Source: Verrucomicrobiota bacterium
GTDB taxonomy: Bacteria; Verrucomicrobiota; Verrucomicrobiia; Limisphaerales; JACRJY01
DNA: 64,000 bases
Reading direction: 5' to 3'
Assembly: GCA_016235585.1 (NCBI GenBank)
Contig: JACRJY010000098.1
Coordinates: 8,810 to 72,809 of the forward strand
Of the stretch, positions 757-50,398 are shown piece after piece. Both the position numbers and the translations under genes were made by a program. The notes beneath the pieces are model-generated. The model saw only the letters and a list, made by a program, of their open reading frames with translations. It did no database searches and was not told the origin of the DNA. Position 1 is the first letter of the stretch; every line of letters starts with the position of its first letter.

Positions 757-2042
757 CGCTTGGCCTTCGCCTCGAAGCGCGGCAGCGCGCCGGGCGGCGT
801 GGCGCTCACCGGCACGCGCAACGACAGCGCGGTGTGGAAGCGCCGTTCCAGCTTGGCGGCCAATGCGGGCGCGTCGGCGCAACCGGGCGTTGGCTCGATT
901 TCCACGCGCAGTTCCGTCATCGCGTTCGCGGTGGCGACGTGGACGCGGTATTCCGCCACGCCGCCGAGGTCGTGGATGATTTCATCCACGGCGCTGGGAT
1001 AGATGTTCATGCCGCGCACCACCACCATGTCGTCCACGCGGCCCAGGATGCCGCCTTCGAGCGCGAGAAATAGCTCGGCGTCGCGCGCGCCGAGCGTCGC
1101 GGGCCTGGCCCTCACCAAGTCGCCCGTGCGATAGCGGAGCAGAGGAGAGCCGGTGCGGCCGAGATTGGTGAGAACGAGTTCGCCGGGTTCGCCGGGCGCT
1201 ACGGGCTGGAGGGTCTGCGGATGGATGATTTCGGCGATGTAGGAACTCTCAATGACCCGCAGCGCACAGGGCCGCGCGGGGTCTTCGTAGCTCACGGGGC
1301 CGATTTCCGTCATGCCGTGGTGGTCGTGGACGCGTGCACCGGGCCAGAGCGCCTGGAGGCGTTCGCGCACGGCGGGAATGCAGCCGCCCGGCTCGCCCGC
1401 GACGCTCAAGAGGCGCACGGGGGATTTGCGCAAATCCATTTTTTCCTGCGCCGCGACTTCGGCGAGGTGAATGGCGTAAGTCGGCGTGCAGCAGAGCACG
1501 GTGGCCTGTTGCTCAAGGATGTTCCGCAGCCGCGCCGCGCTGGTCATGCCGCCGCCGGGCAGCACGAGCGCGCCGATGCGCACCGCCGACTCGAACGCCG
1601 TCCAGAATCCGAGAAACGGCCCGAACGAGAACGCAAAAAAAATCCGGTCGTCGTGCGTGACACCACCGGCGCGATGGACGCGCTCCCAATTGCCGAGCAT
1701 CCATTCCCAGCTCTCGTTGGTGTCGAGCCAGCGCAACGGCGTGCCACTCGTGCCGCTGGTCTGGTGGCAGCGCGTGTAGCGGGCAAGCGGGAAAGTGAGG
1801 TTCGTGCCGTAAGGCGGATTCGCCGTCTGGTCGGCGACGATTTCCGATTTGGTCGTAAGCGGATAGCGCGCGGAAAAGTCCGCGAGGCTCGTGATGTCGC
1901 CGGGCTTTAGTCCCGCCGCCGCGAGTTTGCGCGTGTAAAACGGGTTGGCCGGCACGAGCGCGGCGAGCAGCGTGCGCAGTTGGGTGAACTGGTGCGCGGC
2001 GAGGGCGGCGCGGTTGGGGAATGTGTCGGGCATTCTAATCAA
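732..2042 (-). CDS. phenylacetate-CoA ligase family protein (PaaK / coenzyme F390 synthetase-like adenylate-forming enzyme)
   Basis: 436-aa ORF with adenylation motifs TSGTSGTP, GMTE, RYRTGD and VVVRGMNIYP. Length and order of motifs match the PaaK family. Confidence 0.85.
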   Translation of the reverse strand: MIRMPDTFPNRAALAAHQFTQLRTLLAALVPANPFYTRKLAAAGLKPGDITSLADFSARYPLTTKSEIVADQTANPPYGTNLTFPLARYTRCHQTSGTSGTPLRWLDTNESWEWMLGNWERVHRAGGVTHDDRIFFAFSFGPFLGFWTAFESAVRIGALVLPGGGMTSAARLRNILEQQATVLCCTPTYAIHLAEVAAQEKMDLRKSPVRLLSVAGEPGGCIPAVRERLQALWPGARVHDHHGMTEIGPVSYEDPARPCALRVIESSYIAEIIHPQTLQPVAPGEPGELVLTNLGRTGSPLLRYRTGDLVRARPATLGARDAELFLALEGGILGRVDDMVVVRGMNIYPSAVDEIIHDLGGVAEYRVHVATANAMTELRVEIEPTPGCADAPALAAKLERRFHTALSLRVPVSATPPGALPRFEAKAKRWVFERGK

Positions 2043-2050
2043 TCAATTCA

Positions 2051-2115
2051 GCCGCAAAGAACGCAAGGAAACGCAAAGAGGGAAATTCTTTGCGTGACTT
2101 TGTGTTCTTTGCGGC
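2051..2115. repeat. REP-like nested hairpin (12-bp outer stem GCCGCAAAGAAC/GTTCTTTGCGGC, 8-bp inner stem ACGCAAAG/CTTTGCGT)
   Basis: Inverted repeats read directly from the sequence, in the gap between two minus-strand genes. No U-run follows, so it looks more like a REP than a terminator. Confidence 0.6.
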
Positions 2116-2781: not shown

Positions 2782-3219
2782 ATGAAGCACGCTATCGTCG
2801 GAATTGTTTTTCTCGCCGCGCTGCTGTTCGGCGGCTGCGCGACCTCCACCATCCAAAGCCGCCGGCTGGAGCGGCTCGCAGCTTACGACGCGCTGCCGCC
2901 GGAGACGCGGGCGTTTGTGGACCAGGGGCAAATCCGCGTGGGCATGAGCGCGGACGCGGTCTATATCGCGTGGGGAGCGCCGGCGCAAATCCTCCAGAGC
3001 GAGAGCGGCGCGGGCGTCACGACCACGTGGCTGTATCACGAGACGGTGTTGCGCGAGCGCACCCGCTGGCACTACCGCACAGTGACGCGCGGGCATCTCG
3101 TTTTTCTGGAGCGCTGCCCGGAGCGCGAGGCCGAGGCGGGCAGCTACGTGAGTGCGCAAATCACTTTTGTCAACGGCGCGGTGAGCACCTGGCAGACGCT
3201 GCCGCGGCCGGTGTATTGA
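2782..3219 (+). CDS. putative lipoprotein
   Basis: The internal Met at 2782 gives MKHAIVGIVFLAALLFGGC, a signal peptide with a lipobox-type Cys. The rest is soluble with no recognised family. Confidence 0.6.
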   Translation: MKHAIVGIVFLAALLFGGCATSTIQSRRLERLAAYDALPPETRAFVDQGQIRVGMSADAVYIAWGAPAQILQSESGAGVTTTWLYHETVLRERTRWHYRTVTRGHLVFLERCPEREAEAGSYVSAQITFVNGAVSTWQTLPRPVY

Positions 3220-42530: not shown

Positions 42531-43562
42531 TCATTTGGCCTTCTTCCTCCGCGTTCCCGGTGTTTCCGGGCGAGTTCCTTCCAACCGCTTGATCTCCCGG
42601 TCGAAGTCCGAAACGTATTCCGCGTCCTGCCGCTGGCGATAGACCTCGAATTCCCCCTCGGCCTTGAGCTTCGCCTCCAATGCGCTCACCTTGCCCTTGT
42701 CCTGGAGAATCGGATAGTTCGACAGCTCAAGAAAGCTGTGCAGGAATTTCACCCAGTCCGCCATCTTCATCAGGATGCCGCGCTCGGCCCGGTTCTCCGC
42801 GAGGTCAAGATAGGCGGAAACGATGCGGTTCAACTCCTTCACATGAGCCTCGCTCAAGTAGTTCTTCGCCACCGTCACGTCCGACTTCAAAATCTTCCCG
42901 CCCGGCGCGTGCTTCCACGTCGTCAGCCCCATGTAAACCTTCGTCGCATCGGCGGCGGCGTAGATCAGTTCCGCCGCCGTCTGGCCCGTGATCGCCCAGT
43001 GCAGCTTGTTCTGCACCGTGGCGAAGAACTCTTTTGTCATTGGCGCGTCCGCGTTGTAATCCAGCGACAGGGCGTAGATGTCCGTGATCTTCTGGTAAAA
43101 GCGCCGCTCGCTGGCCCGGATTTCCCGGATGCGCTCCAGCAGTTCGTCGAAGTAATCCTTGCCGAAGACCTGCTTGCCCTGCTTCAGCCGCTCGTCATCC
43201 AGCACGAAGCCCTTGATGATGAACTCGCGCAATGTCTTCGTGGCCCAGATGCGGAACTGCGTGGCCTGAAAGCTGTTCACCCGGTAGCCGACGGCGATGA
43301 TGGCGTCGAGGTTGTAGTATTTGGCGGAGTAAGTTTTCCCGTCCCCGGCAGTATGTTCCAAAATGGAACATACTGAATCTTCCGCCAGTTCCCCGGTGGA
43401 GAAGATGTTCAACAAGTGCTTCGTGATGGCTGGGCGCTGAACGCCGAACAACTCCGCCAACGCCTTTTGCGTCAGCCAGACCGTCTCGTCCTTGAAAAAC
43501 ACGTCCACCTTCACCGCCCCGTCCGGCGCGGTGTAGAGCAGGAATTGGTTTTGGGCGCTCAT
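42531..43562 (-). CDS. rhuM: RhuM family virulence/defence-island protein
   Basis: Near-textbook RhuM N-terminus (VWLTQKALAELFGVQRPAITKHLLNIFSTGEL ... KYYNLDAIIAVGYRVNSFQATQFRIWATKTLREFIIKGFVLDDERLK). Confidence 0.85.
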   Translation of the reverse strand: MSAQNQFLLYTAPDGAVKVDVFFKDETVWLTQKALAELFGVQRPAITKHLLNIFSTGELAEDSVCSILEHTAGDGKTYSAKYYNLDAIIAVGYRVNSFQATQFRIWATKTLREFIIKGFVLDDERLKQGKQVFGKDYFDELLERIREIRASERRFYQKITDIYALSLDYNADAPMTKEFFATVQNKLHWAITGQTAAELIYAAADATKVYMGLTTWKHAPGGKILKSDVTVAKNYLSEAHVKELNRIVSAYLDLAENRAERGILMKMADWVKFLHSFLELSNYPILQDKGKVSALEAKLKAEGEFEVYRQRQDAEYVSDFDREIKRLEGTRPETPGTRRKKAK

Positions 43563-43672
43563 GGGGTTTGAACTTCCACCTGCTTCATTCTGCCTTCTTC
43601 GTTTTGCGAGTGGCCGTCATGCCGCAGGATGTTGCAAAGTGCCGGAGATTTTGGACGAGGGCGTGTGATTAC

Positions 43673-44776
43673 TCACGTTTTACCTCCATTCAAGCCGGTG
43701 ACATGAAGCAACGTGCCGTCTGCGAAAAGACTGTTTATCTCGGTCTCCGACTCGGTCAACTTCGTCGCTAGTGGCTGTGCAACTGCCTCGAACCTGACAC
43801 CTGCCTCCAACGCCTGCCGCTGCACGCCAAAGAACACTTTGATTTTCGACACCGCACTTTCAGATGAGCGGCCAAGGAACTCGGAATCATGATAGCGGTG
43901 AGTTTCGAGAGCATTCGGTTGAGATTCCTCAACGAACTCTGCTCGCAGCTCTTCTTGAAGGCCCTCGATGCGACGAGTTCTAGCGACAGAAGCTGCACCA
44001 GCATCATCAATGCGATGCTTCTCCCGTAGCCGCTGTGACAACGTGGACACATAGTCCTTCGCGGTCTGCGGAAGACCGGCAAATTGAAGCACCTTCTCGA
44101 AGTGAAGAAGCCGGGATGTTTCTGCATCCGCCTTCACTTCTTCAGGTAGCGCGGGCGGATCGACGACAAAAGAAGTGCTTGGAAAAAACCGCTCGTCCGC
44201 GCTCAGGTAGGAGACGATAGCAATCTTCGCCTCGGCAGTTTCAGGGTAACTTTTTACCTGGCTCAGGGCTTTCGACATCGTCTTTTCGACCGTCTGCATT
44301 TTCGTCGTTCCTTTTGCCTCAAACAGGTATCGCTGGCTTGTGGCCGTGTAGCCTTGGAAGTCAGGTCGCTTCTTGCTGAGTTTCGAGTTTTGAGGAATCT
44401 GGCTGACCGATTTCCAACTCAAGCCAAATACTTCGACCATGAAGAAAGCCGCGAGGGCAACGCCGAGGTCTTCTGATAGCCTTCGGCGCGAATCTGAATT
44501 TGCCCCGGCTGGGACGTTGATGCCGCCAACAGCATCCGCACGTTCAAAGAATGTTCGGACCGTCGAGAGATAGAGCGTCAAGTCACTGACAAATCGTTGC
44601 GGTTGCTCACCGAGGAGAAGATAGGCGTGCGTAAACACTGCCGGATTTATCGCCACGAACCGGACATTCTCTGGGAGCTGTGACGAATTGAGGAGGCGAC
44701 TGGCTCCCGCTGCGCTCGCTGCGCGTGCGAGTGTTGGCGCATCAATGCGGTATGGGTGATGGAAAGGCGTGTTCAT
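43673..44776 (-). CDS. uncharacterised protein with PD-(D/E)xK nuclease-like core and unknown helical C-terminal domain
   Basis: 367 aa, AT-richer. E102-D-L-G ... P138-D-F ... F-E153-A-K155-G-T, followed by a beta-strand (IAIVSY). The last ~190 aa carry no motif I recognise. Confidence 0.6.
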   Translation of the reverse strand: MNTPFHHPYRIDAPTLARAASAAGASRLLNSSQLPENVRFVAINPAVFTHAYLLLGEQPQRFVSDLTLYLSTVRTFFERADAVGGINVPAGANSDSRRRLSEDLGVALAAFFMVEVFGLSWKSVSQIPQNSKLSKKRPDFQGYTATSQRYLFEAKGTTKMQTVEKTMSKALSQVKSYPETAEAKIAIVSYLSADERFFPSTSFVVDPPALPEEVKADAETSRLLHFEKVLQFAGLPQTAKDYVSTLSQRLREKHRIDDAGAASVARTRRIEGLQEELRAEFVEESQPNALETHRYHDSEFLGRSSESAVSKIKVFFGVQRQALEAGVRFEAVAQPLATKLTESETEINSLFADGTLLHVTGLNGGKT

Positions 44777-45276
44777 GGTAGGTTAAAAAGGATGCTGACA
44801 AGCTGCTCCAAACTCTGTTTTTTTGATTCGGCATCCCTGATTCTGATGCTCCGATACCCCTCTCGCGGAACTTTCACGCCTTTCTTCTTTTTCGTGGCCT
44901 GCGGGAACAGCGTGAGGTCTCGCATCGGCGCGATGCCGCGTCCACCCATCAAATGGTAGTGCGTGGGTTTGAGCGTTTCGCGGTCGTAGCAAATCCAGAC
45001 GACGCAGCCACCGACGATGCCGCTCAACGACTCTGCGACTGAATAGGAGTTGTTCGTCGTAGCCTTTGCCAGAGTCTTCATCTGGATTTGGCGTGTCACG
45101 GTTCGGAACGTCATCACAAGGTCGACCCCGGCATCGTCCACTTCCGACCGCAACACCGTCACCAACTCCGGCTCTCGGCGAAGCAGGAGAAAGCGCGAGA
45201 CATCGTAGATGAAGCGATGCCGCATCAAGTTCTCGATGTAGGACGAGTTTTCAGCGAGGAAGTCGGAGGAAATCAT
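44773..45276 (-). CDS. uncharacterised DUF4365-like PD-(D/E)xK protein
   Basis: The Met at 45276 overlaps the hsdS-remnant stop by ATGA, and the gene's own stop overlaps the next ATG by ATGA. Motifs: E15, D47-D-A-G-V-D52, Q65-M-K67. Confidence 0.55.
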   Translation of the reverse strand: MISSDFLAENSSYIENLMRHRFIYDVSRFLLLRREPELVTVLRSEVDDAGVDLVMTFRTVTRQIQMKTLAKATTNNSYSVAESLSGIVGGCVVWICYDRETLKPTHYHLMGGRGIAPMRDLTLFPQATKKKKGVKVPREGYRSIRIRDAESKKQSLEQLVSILFNLP

Positions 45277-45473
45277 GATGTGAGTTCTCTGGTGAAGGCT
45301 TTTTGGAAGATGGACTGGCGGAAGCGGGTGGCGCGCTGGAGGTTGGTGGACACCACCGCTTCCAACTCCACCACCACGCTCAACCGTCGCTCCACTTCCG
45401 CCACGATCCGCGCCGGCCCGGCGGAAATGTCCACGGTGGCGGCGGGGCGCAGTTGGGGCGAGGTGCAGGCCAT
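45273..45473 (-). pseudogene. hsdS: truncated Type I restriction-modification specificity subunit (HsdS) C-terminal remnant
   Basis: RIVAEVERRLSVVVELEAVVSTNLQRATRFRQSIFQKAFTRELTS matches the conserved HsdS C-terminal coiled coil (EQ-x-IV-x-x-(L/V)-(D/E) ... L ... A ... LRQSIL-x-x-AF-x-G-x-L). No target-recognition domain is left, and there is a stop 17 codons upstream of the Met. Confidence 0.55.
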
Positions 45474-45577
45474 GGTGATCGCGGAGCATGGGCGAAACCG
45501 GCTGCCGCGTCAATTCGCGTTCGGCGGCAAAACCAGAATTCACAACGGCTGTTCCCGGTGTCTCCGTGGCTTGGTGG

Positions 45578-45608
45578 TTCAAACAGGACAGGCTCGACAT
45601 CCGTCCTG
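45578..45608 (-). terminator. weak candidate terminator after leuA
   Basis: Minus strand: CAGGAC-13 nt-GTCCTG, then TTTGAA, starting 3 nt after the leuA stop. The stem is short, so confidence is low. Confidence 0.3.
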
Positions 45609-45610
45609 CG

Positions 45611-47290
45611 TCATGCCCGGTTCAGCGCGCCCAACACCGCCTTGATGGAGGCCAGCTCGATGTTCGTGTCCACCGCCGCGCCCCAGCGGGTCTTGCCGTC
45701 GGCAAGTTTGATTTGGATGTAGGAAATCGCGCTCGCCTCCTCGCCCGCGCTCAAGGCGTGCTCGCGATAGTTGCTCACCTCGAACTTCGGCGCGCCGCCG
45801 GTTTGCAGCGCGTGGACGAACGCCGCGATGGGGCCGTTGCCCTTGCCGGTGAGCTTCAATTCCTGGCCGTCGCGTTTCACCGAGGCGCGGCACTGGAAAA
45901 CGCCATCCGCGCCGTCCGCGTGGAAATGGATGAGCGACCACGGCGTCGCGCGCTCGATGTATTCCTTCCAGAACATCGCCTTCAATTCCTGACCGCTGAC
46001 CTCGCGGCCCAGCGCGTCCACGAGGTCGTTGGCGATGGGGCCAAACTCGCGCTGCATATCCTTCGGCAGCTCGATGCCGAACTCGCTTTCGAGCAGATAG
46101 GCCACGCCGCCCTTGCCGGACTGGCTGTTCACGCGGATGACCTCGCGGTATTCGCGGCCCAAGTCGCGCGGGTCAATGGTGAGGTAGGGCACGTCCCAAT
46201 GAGCGTTGAGGGTTGAGGGTTGAGGGTTGAGCGTCTTCTGCTCCCACTCGGCCAGACCCTTCTTGATGGCGTCCTGGTGCGAGCCGCTGAACGCGGTGAA
46301 GACGAGTTCGCCCGCGTAAGGCTGGCGCGGCGGAACGGTCATGCCGGTGCAGCGCTCGTAAATTTCGCGGATGCCATTGAGGTCGGAGAAGTCGAGGCGC
46401 GGGTCAATGCCGTGCATGTAGAGGTTCAGCGCGACGGTGACGATGTCGAGGTTGCCGGTGCGCTCGCCGTTGCCGAAGAGCGTGCCCTCGACGCGATCCG
46501 CACCGGCGAGCAGGCCCAGCTCGGTGGCGGCGGTGCCGGTGTTGCGGTCGTTGTGCGTGTGGAGCGACACGATGAGCGAGTCGCGGCTCTTGATGTTGGT
46601 GCAAATCCACTCAATTTGGTCGGCATAGACATTCGGCATCGCGACCTCGACCGTGTCGGGCAGGTTCAGAATCATCTTCCGCTGCGGGGTGGGCTGCCAC
46701 ACGTCCATGACGGCCTCGGAGACTTCCTTGGCGTATTCCACTTCCGTCGCGGAAAAGCTCTCGGGCGAATACTGGAGCGTCACGTCCGTGCCCTTGAGCC
46801 GGTGGAGGCGTTCTTGAATCCACTTCGCGCCGTGGACGGCGATGGCCTTGATCTCGTCCTTCGACTTGCCGAACACCACGCGACGCTGCGCGGGCGAGGT
46901 CGAGTTATACATGTGGATGACGACCCGCTTCGCGCCGACGAGCGACTGGAAGGTTTTCTCGATCAAGTCCTCGCGCGCCTGCACGAGCACCTGGATGGTC
47001 ACGTCGTCGGGAATGCGGTTCTCCTCGATGAGCCGGCGGTTGAAGGCGAACTCGGTGTTCGACGCGGACGGGAAGCCAACCTCGATTTCCTTGAAGCCGC
47101 ACTTCACGAGCGCATCGAACAGTTCGAGTTTCTGCGAGACGTTCATGGGCACGGCGAGCGCCTGGTTGCCATCGCGCAGGTCCACGCTGCACCAGAGCGG
47201 CGCGCGGGTGAGCGTGCGGGTGGGCCACTGGCGGTTCGGGAGGTGGACGCCGGGGAAGGGGCGGTATTTGGCGACGGTGTCTTTCAGCAT
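45611..47290 (-). CDS. leuA: 2-isopropylmalate synthase (long, LeuA type 2 form)
   Basis: 559 aa. WCSVDLRDGNQ, HTHNDRNTGTA and GERTGN motifs, plus the C-terminal LeuA regulatory domain. Confidence 0.92.
   Translation of the reverse strand: MLKDTVAKYRPFPGVHLPNRQWPTRTLTRAPLWCSVDLRDGNQALAVPMNVSQKLELFDALVKCGFKEIEVGFPSASNTEFAFNRRLIEENRIPDDVTIQVLVQAREDLIEKTFQSLVGAKRVVIHMYNSTSPAQRRVVFGKSKDEIKAIAVHGAKWIQERLHRLKGTDVTLQYSPESFSATEVEYAKEVSEAVMDVWQPTPQRKMILNLPDTVEVAMPNVYADQIEWICTNIKSRDSLIVSLHTHNDRNTGTAATELGLLAGADRVEGTLFGNGERTGNLDIVTVALNLYMHGIDPRLDFSDLNGIREIYERCTGMTVPPRQPYAGELVFTAFSGSHQDAIKKGLAEWEQKTLNPQPSTLNAHWDVPYLTIDPRDLGREYREVIRVNSQSGKGGVAYLLESEFGIELPKDMQREFGPIANDLVDALGREVSGQELKAMFWKEYIERATPWSLIHFHADGADGVFQCRASVKRDGQELKLTGKGNGPIAAFVHALQTGGAPKFEVSNYREHALSAGEEASAISYIQIKLADGKTRWGAAVDTNIELASIKAVLGALNRA
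46205..46232. repeat. heptanucleotide microsatellite (GTTGAGG x3 + GTTGAGC) inside leuA
   Basis: Read directly from the sequence. On the coding strand it encodes LNPQPSTLN in the variable loop between the catalytic and linker regions. Confidence 0.8.
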
Positions 47291-47311
47291 GGGCGTGAGG
47301 TGCTAGGTTTT

Positions 47312-47459
47312 GCCACAGATGGACACAGATGAAACACAGATGGGGCGGAATCAGGAAGGCAGGAAAACAGGAGCGGGATGAATGCTGCGCGCATCCCTGT
47401 CTTCCTATGTTTCCGCGTTGTTGATGCAAATCTGTGTTTCATCTGTGTCCATCTGTGGC
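47312..47459. repeat. perfect 30-bp inverted repeat separated by 88 nt (REP-like, CACAGATG family) in the leuA 5' region
   Basis: GCCACAGATGGACACAGATGAAACACAGAT (47312-47341) and its exact reverse complement (47430-47459). A related half-site, GCCACGGATGAAACACGGAC, lies at 42476-42495. Confidence 0.85.
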
Positions 47460-47460
47460 T

Positions 47461-47496
47461 AAAAACAAAAACCCCACCGCCGGGCTGGCAGTGGGG
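47461..47496 (-). terminator. intrinsic terminator in the leuA leader (candidate attenuator)
   Basis: Minus strand: CCCCACTGCC-AGCCC-GGCGGTGGGG (10-bp stem including one G-U), followed by TTTTTGTTTTT. It lies between the Leu-run leader ORF and leuA. Confidence 0.55.
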
Positions 47497-47518
47497 CTTT
47501 GAAATCCGTAAAATCGAA

Positions 47519-47632
47519 TTACAACCCGACCGCCGCGCCGCCCGGAGGCAGCGCGCGGATAAGCAGCAGGTTGTTCAAATTACGATTCACGGATGAATGA
47601 ATAACCGCCGGGCGGACGCCGGTCAAATTCAT
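47519..47632 (-). CDS. candidate leucine leader peptide (37 codons)
   Basis: ATG at 47632, TAA at 47519-47521. MNLTGVRPAVIHSSVNRNLNNLLLIRALPPGGAAVGL has 7 Leu, including the run CTG-CTG-CTT. Its last codons contain GGCGGTCGGG, which can pair with the terminator 5' arm. Confidence 0.35.
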   Translation of the reverse strand: MNLTGVRPAVIHSSVNRNLNNLLLIRALPPGGAAVGL

Positions 47633-47734
47633 TTTTGCCCGGCGGACAAGCAAAGCCACGCTGGCAATCACGGTCGCTTCAAATATTGCCGGCGGATTGC
47701 GGACGGACAAATTCCGCTTCAATGAGCAAAAAGA

Positions 47735-50398
47735 TTGGATTCGGAAGAGGAAATCGGCAACAATCAAAACCCAATGGGCCTGGAACATCTTGAATCTGCG
47801 GAAATGTCCGACGCTGGCAAGCAGCGGGAAAAAAACGGGGACGCCTGCCTGCTGCTGCCGGACAAAGGCGTTTTTTGTGTTGCGGACGGGAAGGGCGGGG
47901 TGGTGGGCCACGGTTTTTCCAGCGAGGCGGTCACCAGCAATTTGCAGGAAGTCTTCGCGAAGGCCGCGCCCGAAGCGACGAACGGTTTGTCAGCGGGCAT
48001 TGCCCAGGTGCGGAAGGCGGCAAGCCAGGCGAGCAAGGCGCTGCGGAATTTTGCGGACGAAAAGGGCACCGGGCAGGTGATCTCCACCTTCGCGGGGATC
48101 GTCTTCAGCCCGCGCAATCCCACCCGGGCGGCGGTTCTGCACGCCGGCGACAGCCGGGTCTACCGGCTGCGGGCCAACCGGCTGGAGCCATTGACCGTGG
48201 ATCATACCACCGCCGCGCTCCTCGCCCGGGACACCGGCCAGGATCCGGCGGACTTGCCGCCCGAATTTCAAGAGGAGCTGGTGCAGGCCGTCGGGGCGAA
48301 GGCGGAGGTCGAACTGGAAAAAACCGTCGTGGACGTGGCCGGCCGGGATGTCTTCCTGATCTGTTCCGACGGGCTGACCAAGATGATGTCCGACGAGTCC
48401 ATCGGCCGGCTTCTGATCAAGTGCGGCAGCCTCTCCCTCAAGGACGCGGCAAAAAAGCTGGTGGAGGCGGCCAATCGCGCCGGCGGAAACGACAACGTGA
48501 CCGTCGTGCTGGTGAAGGTCGGCGACATCAGCAAGGTGTCGTATGAAAAAGGCGCGGATGACGACGAGCCGTTGACCGCCATCAAAGCGTCTCCCGCGAA
48601 AACACCCGCCCCGGCTCCTGACCGTGGCGAGCGCCCCAAAGCCGCGCCCGCCTTCGACGAGTCCCCGGATGCGGATCGCGCGGAAACCCCGGCCTCCCGC
48701 CCGGCGCAAACGCCAGAGCCGGCCGGCGCGCCCCGCAGCGGCGGCATGCCGGTCAAGGCCATCGTGATTGCCGTCGTCGCCCTGGTGGCGGTGGTCGGCG
48801 GCATTTTCATGTTCAAGGGGCGCGGTTCCAAAACATCCGCACCAACTTCCGCGCCGACTGTCGAGTCCACGCCGGAAACAAATTCAACGCCCACGCCCGC
48901 TCCGTCCGTGGCGGCCAAGCCGCCGCCTGAACCTCCGCCGCCGGTTGCGCCGCCGCCGGTTGCGCCACCCGCCGCCGTGCCGGCGGCCAGTGCGACGGGC
49001 CATCTCCGCCTTCAGAGCGAGCCGGCGGGGGTGGCGGTGTTCCGCTTGGGCGAGCGGGTGGGGGAAACCCCGTATGAAGCGCAACAAGTCGCGCCGGGGA
49101 AACTGGCCTTCACGCTCGGCTCGCTCACCCACACGGGTGCCGTCGAGTTCACCCTCGCCGCCGGGGCAACCTACACGACCAACGTGCCCCTGATTCCACG
49201 ACTGGGTTCGATCAGCTTGAGCAGCGATCCCGCCGGAGCCACCGTCTGGAACGGCGGCAAAGCGCTCGGCAAAACGCCGGTGGATTTGAAGCTGCCGGCC
49301 GGCCCGCAGGAATTCACCTTGAAATTCCCCGGCCTCCCCGACGCCTCGTTGAAGGCCAAGATCGAGCCGGATTTGATAGTGAAGGCCAGCGTGCCGTTCG
49401 CCTACGGGGGTGTCGTCATCACCAGCGAGCCGGCGGGGGCGGCGGTGAAATGGAACGACAAGGTTGTCGGCAAAACGCCCTACACGAATTCCCCGCTGCC
49501 CGTCGGGCGCGCGACGTGGCGGCTGGAGGCGGAACATTTCGAGCCGACCAACGTGGTCACGCAAATCCTCGACCACCAAACCGCCCGGCTGCGCGTCGTT
49601 CTCCCGCGCGCGCACGGCACGCTGGATTTGCAGGGCAACCGGGCGGGCATCCAGGCCCGCGTGGACGACGGGCCGCCCGTCGCCGTGCCCGCCAAGGTCA
49701 GCGTCACCGCCGGTCTGTCCCACACGGTCGTGGCGGAATACAAGGGCCAGCGCCGCACCAACGGCCCGGTGCAGGTGGATCGGAGCGAACGTCAGACCTT
49801 GAGCTTTAATTTTGAGGAGCCAAAGACCACGCCGCCTCCGGCTCCGTCCCCGGCTCCACCGCCGCCGCCCGCCAATCCCGCCGCCAAAAACGAATTGAAA
49901 AAATGGATCAGCCCGCTGGGAATCGAATTCATCCGGCCGGCGGGCCAGGATTTCTGGATCACCACCGCGCGCATCACGCCAAAGCAATACGAGCAAATCA
50001 CCGGCAGCACCCTGGAGGATGACGAGAAGGGCGAAGACAACGGCCAGCCGTGCGTAATCAATACTTCCTACGGCGACGCCCGCGCCTTTGCGGAAAAAAT
50101 GTCCGGGCTGGGGGCGCGCAGCGGCCGGCCGGCGGGATACGAAACCGCGCACTACGCGCTGCCCACCCCGGAGCAGTGGAAAATCCTGCTCGACGCCTCG
50201 GACGCGCTCGGCCTCCCCGTCAAGGCGCAGACGAAATTTTCCGAATGGTGCCTGGTCATCACGAGCCGGGGAGCCGTGGCGCATCAGGCCGGTTCCAACC
50301 GGGGGAAAATGGAAGTTTATGAAAGACTGCCCGCGCCCGCCGCCTCCGAGCGCGATCCCTACCTGACCTTCCGTCTGGTCATCGTGAAATCGAAGTAG
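47735..50398 (+). CDS. membrane protein: cytoplasmic PP2C Ser/Thr phosphatase + TM + PEGA repeats + C-terminal FGE/SUMF1-like domain
   Basis: PP2C motifs (REKNGDACLL, FCVADGKGG, LICSDGL, GGNDNVTVVLV). TM helix VKAIVIAVVALVAVVGGIFMF. At least 4 PEGA-like units (S-x-P-x-GA-x-V ... G-x-TP). The tail has FGE-like YALPTPEQWK and FRLV. Starts at 47774 or 47804 are possible. Confidence 0.8.
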   Translation: MDSEEEIGNNQNPMGLEHLESAEMSDAGKQREKNGDACLLLPDKGVFCVADGKGGVVGHGFSSEAVTSNLQEVFAKAAPEATNGLSAGIAQVRKAASQASKALRNFADEKGTGQVISTFAGIVFSPRNPTRAAVLHAGDSRVYRLRANRLEPLTVDHTTAALLARDTGQDPADLPPEFQEELVQAVGAKAEVELEKTVVDVAGRDVFLICSDGLTKMMSDESIGRLLIKCGSLSLKDAAKKLVEAANRAGGNDNVTVVLVKVGDISKVSYEKGADDDEPLTAIKASPAKTPAPAPDRGERPKAAPAFDESPDADRAETPASRPAQTPEPAGAPRSGGMPVKAIVIAVVALVAVVGGIFMFKGRGSKTSAPTSAPTVESTPETNSTPTPAPSVAAKPPPEPPPPVAPPPVAPPAAVPAASATGHLRLQSEPAGVAVFRLGERVGETPYEAQQVAPGKLAFTLGSLTHTGAVEFTLAAGATYTTNVPLIPRLGSISLSSDPAGATVWNGGKALGKTPVDLKLPAGPQEFTLKFPGLPDASLKAKIEPDLIVKASVPFAYGGVVITSEPAGAAVKWNDKVVGKTPYTNSPLPVGRATWRLEAEHFEPTNVVTQILDHQTARLRVVLPRAHGTLDLQGNRAGIQARVDDGPPVAVPAKVSVTAGLSHTVVAEYKGQRRTNGPVQVDRSERQTLSFNFEEPKTTPPPAPSPAPPPPPANPAAKNELKKWISPLGIEFIRPAGQDFWITTARITPKQYEQITGSTLEDDEKGEDNGQPCVINTSYGDARAFAEKMSGLGARSGRPAGYETAHYALPTPEQWKILLDASDALGLPVKAQTKFSEWCLVITSRGAVAHQAGSNRGKMEVYERLPAPAASERDPYLTFRLVIVKSK

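Follow-up and report, generated by a model that had tools for sequence, protein, structure and literature searches.

The 64,000-nucleotide (nt) stretch of DNA analyzed here, which we call the window, comes from a Verrucomicrobiota bacterium (GenBank assembly GCA_016235585.1, contig JACRJY010000098.1). On its minus strand lies leuA, and in front of leuA a leader region with a short leucine-rich open reading frame (ORF) and an intrinsic terminator; all leader coordinates below are on the minus strand of the window unless marked +. Judged by its scores against protein family models, the gene that starts at 47290 does encode a 2-isopropylmalate synthase, and one of the long type (821 bits against NF002991, for which the cut-off is 455, and 733 bits against TIGR00970, for which it is 697). 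Upstream, a 37-codon ORF is open from ATG 47632 to TAA 47521-47519, with product MNLTGVRPAVIHSSVNRNLNNLLLIRALPPGGAAVGL and seven Leu codons that include CTG CTG CTT at 47569-47561, and its ATG is 342 nt from the leuA ATG at 47290. A first-pass annotation of this sequence took the ORF for the leader peptide of a ribosome-mediated attenuator. Comparison with relatives supports the core of that proposal: the conservation of the element, both alternative helices, the signatures of coding, the folding around a simulated ribosome, and a sister leader with Val runs in front of ilvB all point to a leucine-responsive, ribosome-mediated transcription attenuator of leuA, a reading to which we assign a probability of about 0.78. 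The coordinates of the ORF, its seven Leu codons and its distance to leuA are as the annotation had them, but its start is not that of the leader, for which the conserved start is GTG 47590, leaving 23 codons. The features are collected in Table 1.

Table 1. Features of the leuA leader and its surroundings in the window
Feature	Position	Strand	Support or remark
A-tract, resembling an UP element	47632..47636	-	last A is the A of ATG 47632-47630; A-rich run before TTGAC in nearly all relatives
-35 box TTGACC	47621..47626	-	91/93 relatives with TAnnnT have at least 5/6 matches to TTGACA at 16-18 nt
Probable -10 box TATTCA	47598..47603	-	17 nt past the -35 box, 7 nt before GTG; TAnnnT in 93/123 relatives
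Conserved leader ORF, GTG start, 23 codons, M/V-NRNLNNLLLIRALPPGGAAVGL	47519..47590	-	123 relatives
Leu run CUG CUG CUU, codons 8-10, proposed stalling site	47561..47569	-	LLL in 104/123 leaders
Other Leu codons of the 23-codon leader	47578-47576, 47551-47549, 47524-47522	-	sequence
TAA stop of the leader ORF	47521-47519	-	sequence
Segment 1, ACAACCUGCUGC, predicted to pair with segment 2 and block the antiterminator	47563..47574	-	RNAalifold consensus helix; in the lowest-energy fold of the window
Segment 2, GGCGGUCGGGUUGU, near copy of the terminator 3' arm	47521..47534	-	last five sense codons into the stop
Segment 3, AAGCCCCACUGCC, terminator 5' arm and antiterminator 3' strand	47487..47499	-	pair counts, 120 sequences
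Segment 4, GGCGGUGGGG, and U-tract UUUUUGUUUUU (terminator 3' arm and tail)	47461..47481	-	pair counts, 120 sequences
Apical GC hairpin, CGCGCUGCC (47555-47547) / GGCGGCGCG (47542-47534)	47534..47555	-	predicted fold
Terminator	CCCCACUGCC 47496-47487, loop AGCCC, GGCGGUGGGG 47481-47472, UUUUUGUUUUU 47471-47461	-	22 nt past the stop
Helix 1:2	47574-47563 with 47533-47521	-	95.2% of cells paired, 38 sequences; shifted controls 30-55%; -18.6 kcal/mol
Helix 2:3, antiterminator	47534-47523 with 47498-47487	-	96.8% of cells paired, 120 sequences; shifted controls 27-58%; -17.7 kcal/mol
Helix 3:4, terminator	47499-47487 with 47481-47469	-	99.2% of cells paired, 120 sequences; shifted controls 34-64%; -24.8 kcal/mol
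leuA, 2-isopropylmalate synthase, 559 amino acids (aa), regulated gene	45611..47290	-	NF002991 and TIGR00970 above cut-offs
156-bp inverted-repeat element, 34-nt near-perfect arms, three CACAGATG-type units	47308..47463		sequence

The element is not peculiar to this contig. In a set of 80 Verrucomicrobiota leuA loci, fetched via the LeuA protein, about half have the same terminator (CCCCACUGCC ... GGCGGUGGGG ... U-run), and before it an ORF ending in AAVGF, AAVGL or AAVGV, its stop codon and 20-27 nt of spacer. When 185,579 species-representative genomes were scanned for the exact pattern, at least 119 matches came up, and nearly all of them are in contigs that carry the label Verrucomicrobiota (Limisphaerales, Pedosphaera, "subdivision 3"). 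Among the matches listed, the remaining ones appear to be mislabelled metagenome-assembled genomes (MAGs), and leuA lies 20-342 nt downstream on the same strand in all 114 evaluable cases; five further listed matches sit at the edges of their loci and are outside this count. The family amounts to at least 123 distinct leuA leaders, and 123 distinct relatives present the whole arrangement again. One carrier of the element, Limisphaera sp. VF-2 (L072/L087), is culturable. Aligning the regions upstream of leuA in related genomes, a check that the first-pass annotation had suggested, finds the ORF, the Leu run and the terminator conserved together. A covariance model built from 38 relatives, with the window excluded (model R1, 126 positions), scores the window at 109.2 bits (E = 2.5e-29) over 47462-47590 (-), model positions 1-126 of 126. 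Run against 724 kb of DNA from elsewhere, most of it Verrucomicrobiota, the same model reports only a known leuA locus and one ilvB leader. Within the window itself, looking for additional copies of segment 2 or segment 4 before other genes gave only the two expected ones, the remainder being at chance level.

The RNA would have three conserved helices. A 191-nt region of the leader has a folding energy of -93.2 kcal/mol, compared with -65.3 +/- 4.3 in shuffles (z = -6.5; 0 of 200 shuffles did as well). The terminator described 22 nt after the stop is there as stated, with a stem of 13-14 bp (a scan extends it to 14 bp). So is the near copy of its 3' arm: GGCGGUCGGG at 47534-47525 pairs at 9 of 10 positions with the terminator 5' arm. 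Both are conserved, and the pairings 1:2, 2:3 and 3:4 are all kept in the relatives, which supports the proposed four-segment attenuator logic. Folding of the minus strand, another suggested check, gives the alternative structures with the energies of Table 1. In the 120 sequences the terminator helix accumulates 26 double-change cells. Segment 3 has a variable position, and the 14 sequences with C there all have G, and not A, at the segment 2 partner (Fisher p = 9e-5). The antiterminator retains one C-C mismatch or bulge that the terminator lacks, and of the 123 leaders, 118 have GTC or GTT as the Val codon within segment 2 and a single one has GTG. GTG also encodes Val, so that the preference for GTC and GTT suggests that selection acts on the RNA and keeps the antiterminator weaker than the terminator.

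How would a ribosome on the leader ORF change this folding? We simulated one as a 28-nt mask in 38 leaders, placed on the first Leu run present (LL or longer) with the nascent RNA extending to the terminator loop. With the mask on the Leu run, at least 6 of the 9 core antiterminator pairs form in 35 of the 37 leaders having such a run. Moving the mask to the stop codon leaves none of the leaders with antiterminator pairs, because the mask then covers segment 2. The lowest-energy fold of the full RNA includes the terminator in 37 of 38 leaders. The window switches likewise in these in-silico folds, with the A site at Leu8, Leu9, Leu10 or Leu14.

The leader ORF carries several marks of a translated sequence. 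Across the 123 leaders its start codon is GTG (107) or ATG (16), its length is 20-25 codons in all but two, which have in-frame inserts of 10-11 codons, and the stop codon sits at one fixed place while being TGA in 94, TAG in 23 and TAA in 6. Picking as start the first ATG or GTG located 4-9 nt past a recognizable -10 box, regardless of frame, gives 93 of 95 leaders a start that shares the frame of the stop, despite their varying length (p = 8.5e-42 against an expectation of one third). Leu makes up 31.5% of leader codons versus 8.7% of those in the adjacent LeuA; there are 5-9 Leu per leader peptide in the family, and 6 in the 23-codon ORF of the window, the run of three among them. The fixed Leu positions vary among 3-4 synonymous codons: at position 5, for instance, one finds TTG (51), CTG (38), TTA (14) and CTA (5). 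The kept frame, the synonymous variation of the Leu codons and the use of three stop codons at one position favour translation of the leader ORF. Codon choice has a bias of its own. The Leu codons of the leaders (38 loci) are 64% CTG, with only 4 CTC in 253, whereas the leuA genes adjoining the same 38 leaders favour CTC (38% of Leu codons). This CTG bias may come from the pairing of CUGCUG with segment 2, or from reliance on one tRNA-Leu isoacceptor. As a side observation, two leaders from different sub-lineages, L113 (1561-1721) and L148 (7084-7238), carry the same in-frame insert of 33 nt inside the first Leu run (TCC ACC CTC CGC AGT RYT GCT ACG GAG GAC GGG), which could form a hairpin.

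The promoter of the family consists of an A-tract, TTGAC[C/G], 16-18 nt, TAnnnT, and 5-8 nt (mostly 6) to the start codon. In the clade nearest to the window (the L001 group) the -10 box is TACAAC, with spacings of 17 and 7 nt as in the window. A conserved promoter directly before GTG 47590 means that the leader is probably on a leaderless transcript. By this arrangement of motifs, we somewhat favour a transcript that starts at or next to GTG 47590 and that would be read by the ribosome from its very 5' end.

If ribosomes read the codons of the leader, one expects their identity to follow the pathway of the regulated gene, and this is what a second group of leaders suggests. Model R1 matches locus L284 weakly, with 39.5 bits, and the site, 1949-2070 (-), precedes ilvB and not leuA. 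It has a leader peptide, MLKNNSQVVTLVVVVVSDAVGAC, followed by a terminator related to that of the leuA leader. We therefore looked at 80 Verrucomicrobiota ilvB loci (L318-L397). At least 50 of them share one design. A TTGAC promoter is followed by an ORF that starts with ATG and has 22-31 codons with Val runs; after its stop come 12-19 nt and then a conserved terminator (ACCCACGGCYGG...CGGYYGTGGGT), which lies 73-120 nt before ilvB. The element lies ~70-220 nt upstream of ilvB, and an example of its peptide is MLKNVTQAVILVVVVVGDAVGAC; in 32 of these peptides Val accounts for 28% and Leu for 10% of residues. The two leaders are alike in having a promoter close to the start codon, an ORF, a stop, a spacer and a related terminator arm (ACCCACGGCYGG). 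They differ in that the ilvB leader has Val codons, would regulate the large subunit of acetolactate synthase, and has its ATG ~9 nt after the -10 box. That codon identity goes with the pathway, Leu with leuA and Val with ilvB, is predicted by ribosome sensing and not by purely RNA or protein sensing. The window has no ilvB. By this design, the ilvB leader looks like a second uncatalogued attenuator family, the Rfam scans reported below having covered the leuA leaders.

Putting these elements together, we infer a transcription start, translation of the leader, stalling at its Leu codons, termination at the U-tract and a response to leucine, which would work as follows. From a sigma-70-type promoter (TTGACC, 17 nt, TATTCA), transcription would begin at GTG 47590 or 1-2 bases from it, and the 23-codon leader would be translated without a Shine-Dalgarno leader. 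When leucine is scarce, the ribosome would stall at CUG CUG CUU (47569-47561) and keep segment 1 (47574-47563) off segment 2 (47534-47521). Segment 2, thus freed, would pair with segment 3 (47499-47487) as the latter leaves the polymerase. With 2:3 formed the terminator could not form, and RNA polymerase would continue into leuA. When leucine is ample, the ribosome would reach the last codons and the stop, covering segment 2, so that segment 3 would pair with segment 4 (47481-47469) and transcription would end at the U-tract.

Other readings of the same sequence have to be weighed, starting with the first-pass annotation in its full form: a 37-codon leader from ATG 47632, a promoter further upstream, and the GC-rich hairpin 47558-47533 as 1:2. 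In the window the ORF from that ATG is indeed open, and the imperfect -10 box leaves room for an upstream start. The relatives speak otherwise. The ATG belongs to the A-tract and -35 part of a promoter that ~120 relatives share; an in-frame upstream ATG of any kind exists in only 26 of 123 leaders; and 45 of 123 have an in-frame stop four codons before the conserved start, which is the TAG or TAA of the -10 box itself when the spacing from the -10 box to the start is 6 nt. At the position of that ATG the window has AAAATGAATTTGACC and relatives have AAAATCAATTTGACC, so that ATG 47632 looks like a chance single-base variant. The GC-rich hairpin exists as a prediction, in the free RNA as well as with a ribosome stalled at Leu8 or Leu9, and its persistence in the stalled states tells it apart from the switching helix (when Leu10 occupies the A site it is down to 3 bp); the conserved partner of segment 2 is the Leu-run region 47574-47563. 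We thus consider the 37-codon form very unlikely.

Nearly as improbable, to our judgement a shade less so, is a real switch that is set by something other than a ribosome (a leucine-responsive RNA-binding protein, an uncharged tRNA-Leu as in a T-box, or a ligand), with the ORF as a by-product. Peptide conservation does overlap the paired RNA, AAVGF being the copy of the terminator arm and NLNL lying in segment 1, and for actinobacterial leuA leaders protein binding was proposed after mutations of the Leu codons had little effect (PMC1262725). A by-product, though, would not be expected to keep frame, start and stop across variation in length, to vary synonymously among Leu codons at fixed positions, to use all three stop codons, or to change its codon identity to Val in the ilvB element. 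Nor does the leader show a T-box or riboswitch match at E up to 10, or a conserved unpaired core of the riboswitch type. The least credible alternative is that the hairpin and U-tract terminate constitutively, or end a small RNA (sRNA), with no relation to leuA, and that the Leu-rich ORF is a coincidence. It would account for a weak resemblance to models of terminator-containing sRNAs (anti-hemB, 22 bits, threshold 49.5). However, the gene upstream is divergent, so that the terminator serves no upstream gene; the element invariably precedes leuA in the same orientation (the 114 of 114 evaluable cases among the matches listed); the antiterminator is conserved; and a metatranscriptome contig from a relative reads from the leader into leuA. 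We give this possibility next to no weight.

Returning to the leucine attenuator, a number of observations count against it, or against parts of it. All of the evidence is in silico. The covariation is thin because the segments are nearly invariant, the double changes in the antiterminator are confined to one pair, and the shuffle statistics could be inflated by kinship among the sequences. When the nascent RNA is folded with no ribosome, ~25 of 38 relatives have 2:3 and not 1:2 as the helix of lowest energy, which implies that termination without translation is not guaranteed and would depend on folding kinetics. The leader Leu codons are mainly CUG rather than the rarest Leu codons, and the second Leu run has degraded in the window to L-P-P. 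The -10 box of the window, TATTCA, is without the usually conserved final T, and we know of no demonstration of leaderless initiation at GTG in Verrucomicrobiota. Finally, the metatranscriptome contigs contain read-through RNA only, and resolve neither a 5' end nor a terminated species.

As for those transcripts, the sequence of the window is found solely in DNA runs, from groundwater and other environmental metagenomes. Assembled metatranscriptome contigs, low-depth fragments all, exist for the relatives L151, L087 and L040. A 158-nt contig (run X12) is an exact match to L151 5822-5979, from segment 2 across the terminator into leuA, and upstream of the predicted promoter there is no coverage by any L151 contig. 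Read-through of RNA started at that promoter would give such a picture.

Attenuation by a leader peptide is a classic mechanism whose documented cases are mainly from Proteobacteria, Actinobacteria and some Firmicutes, and to our knowledge gene regulation in Verrucomicrobiota is almost unexplored. The first-pass annotation was not aware of this logic having been described in Verrucomicrobia-like genomes, and the searches of Rfam and the literature agree with it. A permissive Rfam search of 46500-48500 (E up to 10) gave no match to RF00512 (Leu_leader) or to T-box. At the gathering score, over the whole window and 15 relatives with three leader types, no Rfam family matched the leuA leader element, RF00512 and T-box included. 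Matches to anti-hemB, rnk_pseudo and NsiR1 are below threshold and driven by the terminator, and we discarded them. The 23-aa, 37-aa and one relative's leader peptide found no match in Pfam and NCBIfam at E up to 10. In the literature we found no description of attenuation, leader peptides or leaderless leaders in Verrucomicrobia; a survey from 2010 knew such attenuators only in Proteobacteria and Actinobacteria (PMC2965389).

The window element has the constituents by which an attenuator of this kind is recognized: an ORF with codons of the pathway, an intrinsic terminator, a mutually exclusive antiterminator and, in silico, the proper ribosome geometry. With the enterobacterial leuL (RF00512) and trp attenuators it shares the short ORF with a run of codons for the amino acid of the pathway, the four segments that form 1:2, a 2:3 antiterminator and a 3:4 intrinsic terminator, and a stop placed so that a terminating ribosome blocks the antiterminator. 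Unlike leuL, to which it has no sequence or model similarity, the Verrucomicrobiota leader is probably leaderless with a GUG start, its segment 2 is inside the ORF and ends at the stop, its Leu codons are mostly CUG, and its leuA is without adjacent leu genes, as opposed to leuABCD. The leu leader of Salmonella uses rare CUA codons.

The nearest precedents for a leaderless Leu leader are leuL1 and leuL2 of Streptomyces lividans, found before leuA and leuS, respectively (PMC8079986). These too are short peptides with Leu runs (MRFGLLLLSCRGEGL, MRAVRLLLSEPR), leaderless and in front of leucine-related genes, and leuL2 is followed by a hairpin and a U-stretch (PMC8079986). They belong to another phylum and are unrelated in sequence, and their leaderless status was measured whereas ours is predicted. 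Also, the Streptomyces leuA leader is without a typical intrinsic terminator, while the Verrucomicrobiota element has a strong conserved one and the antiterminator copy. The actinobacterial LEU element precedes the same long-form (TIGR00970-type) leuA and has an upstream ORF with a Leu run, but that run pairs with leuA's Shine-Dalgarno box to form the base of a pseudoknot, with no terminator, and its authors considered classical attenuation unlikely (PMC1262725). In the window, by contrast, the Leu run would pair with segment 2 within the leader, in a switch between terminator and antiterminator; the leader ends at least 170 nt before the leuA start, which is 170 nt past the U-tract. Judged by these sequence comparisons, the Verrucomicrobiota leuA leader is not the Rfam Leu_leader, a T-box or the actinobacterial LEU element. 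It is a real, conserved and previously uncatalogued leuA leader family, the mechanism itself being already known.

What is gained is a defined family of 123 distinct leuA leaders, together with a sister ilvB family, in a poorly studied phylum. For annotation, it provides a model for a recurrent intergenic element and a small ORF to be called from GTG, and it allows leuA and ilvB to be flagged as attenuated genes in MAGs. The predicted leaderless GUG start would be a simple way to probe leaderless translation in Verrucomicrobiota. A more speculative extension, which we regard as unlikely, is that subdivision-3 Verrucomicrobiota have a small regulon of single-round leaderless attenuators, with Leu runs for leuA and Val runs for ilvB. 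If that were true, the 5'-terminal GUG or AUG would be bound directly by a 70S ribosome, pairing with the spacer after the stop would later sequester the 5' end, so that the first ribosome alone decides, and GUG-initiated leaderless translation would be routine in Verrucomicrobiota. The lowest-energy fold of the window does pair 47589-47575 with 47517-47500. As a family feature, a helix of the leader 5' end with the post-stop spacer (P0) was tried and set aside: a leader's own pairs barely beat those of mismatched leaders (-7.0 versus -6.4 kcal/mol, p = 0.01), and the modeled P0 is possible, not established.

Between the terminator and leuA the window has something that most relatives do not. 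A 156-bp inverted-repeat element follows directly after the U-tract and ends 18 nt short of the leuA ATG. The distance from segment 2 to the leuA start is ~245 nt in the window versus ~114 nt in most relatives, because this element was inserted after the terminator. We discarded 47308-47463 as a part of the regulator: the motif of its arms is multi-copy across genomes and phyla, and most relatives have no insert of any kind there. The arm motif gives more than 118 exact-pattern matches. A genome has several of them, often paired in inverted orientation at distances of 80-560 nt, and they come from Verrucomicrobiota as well as from contigs labelled Planctomycetota, Abditibacteriota and Treponema. 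By its repeat structure and distribution it looks like a mobile repeat resembling a miniature inverted-repeat transposable element, outside the switch; once transcribed, it would give the 5' untranslated region of leuA an additional long hairpin. The closest relative, L001, has a related element in the same position (~2884-3000), with CACGAATG units in place of CACAGATG. In L001 and L035 the inverted-repeat elements begin 1-3 nt after the terminator U-tract, and their repeat units differ in a concerted way. That such elements recur at the same spot suggests that insertion after the terminator is preferred, or else that one element was replaced by a sister.

On the other side of the leader, the neighbour is an ORF at 47804-50398 (+), divergent from leuA, whose 864-aa protein has an N-terminal PP2C/SpoIIE phosphatase domain and PEGA domains; the start of this gene is ~170 nt from the -35 box of the leader. 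On the 3' side of leuA (42531-45600, -) there are ORFs of 275 and 367 aa, neither with a Pfam or NCBIfam match, and then a RhuM-family gene. With these neighbours, leuA is apparently outside any leu operon.

Other Verrucomicrobiota leuA genes have other leaders. In Verrucomicrobiaceae/Prosthecobacter-type genomes the leader is MTTTATALLLLSLRLTQG, in which four Leu stand in a row; a conserved GCGGCCCGCGUUUCCUCGUCAUGC box and a weaker hairpin come after it (L023, L026, L027, L031, L037, L038, L042, L043, L048, L051, L054, L055, L058, L059 and L061). The three of these scanned against Rfam (L037, L038, L055) have no family match. Chthoniobacterales-type leaders have a CGACUUACGC box (Arg-Leu, CGA CUU) in a long hairpin, with no obvious terminator (L006-L008, L012, L014, L016, L032, L033, L044), and may use a different mechanism; the CGACUU motif is also present in other leader types (..LRL..). 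Several Verrucomicrobiota-type leuA loci come from MAG records labelled Klebsiella pneumoniae, Bifidobacteriaceae, Akkermansia muciniphila, Candidatus Acidoferrum and the like (L003, L009, L011, L019, L021, L042, L056 and others), which look like taxonomy errors. And at L013, 2616-2661, ~95 nt upstream of the leuA leader ORF, there is a match to Acido-Lenti-1 RNA, with 42 bits for a threshold of 37.

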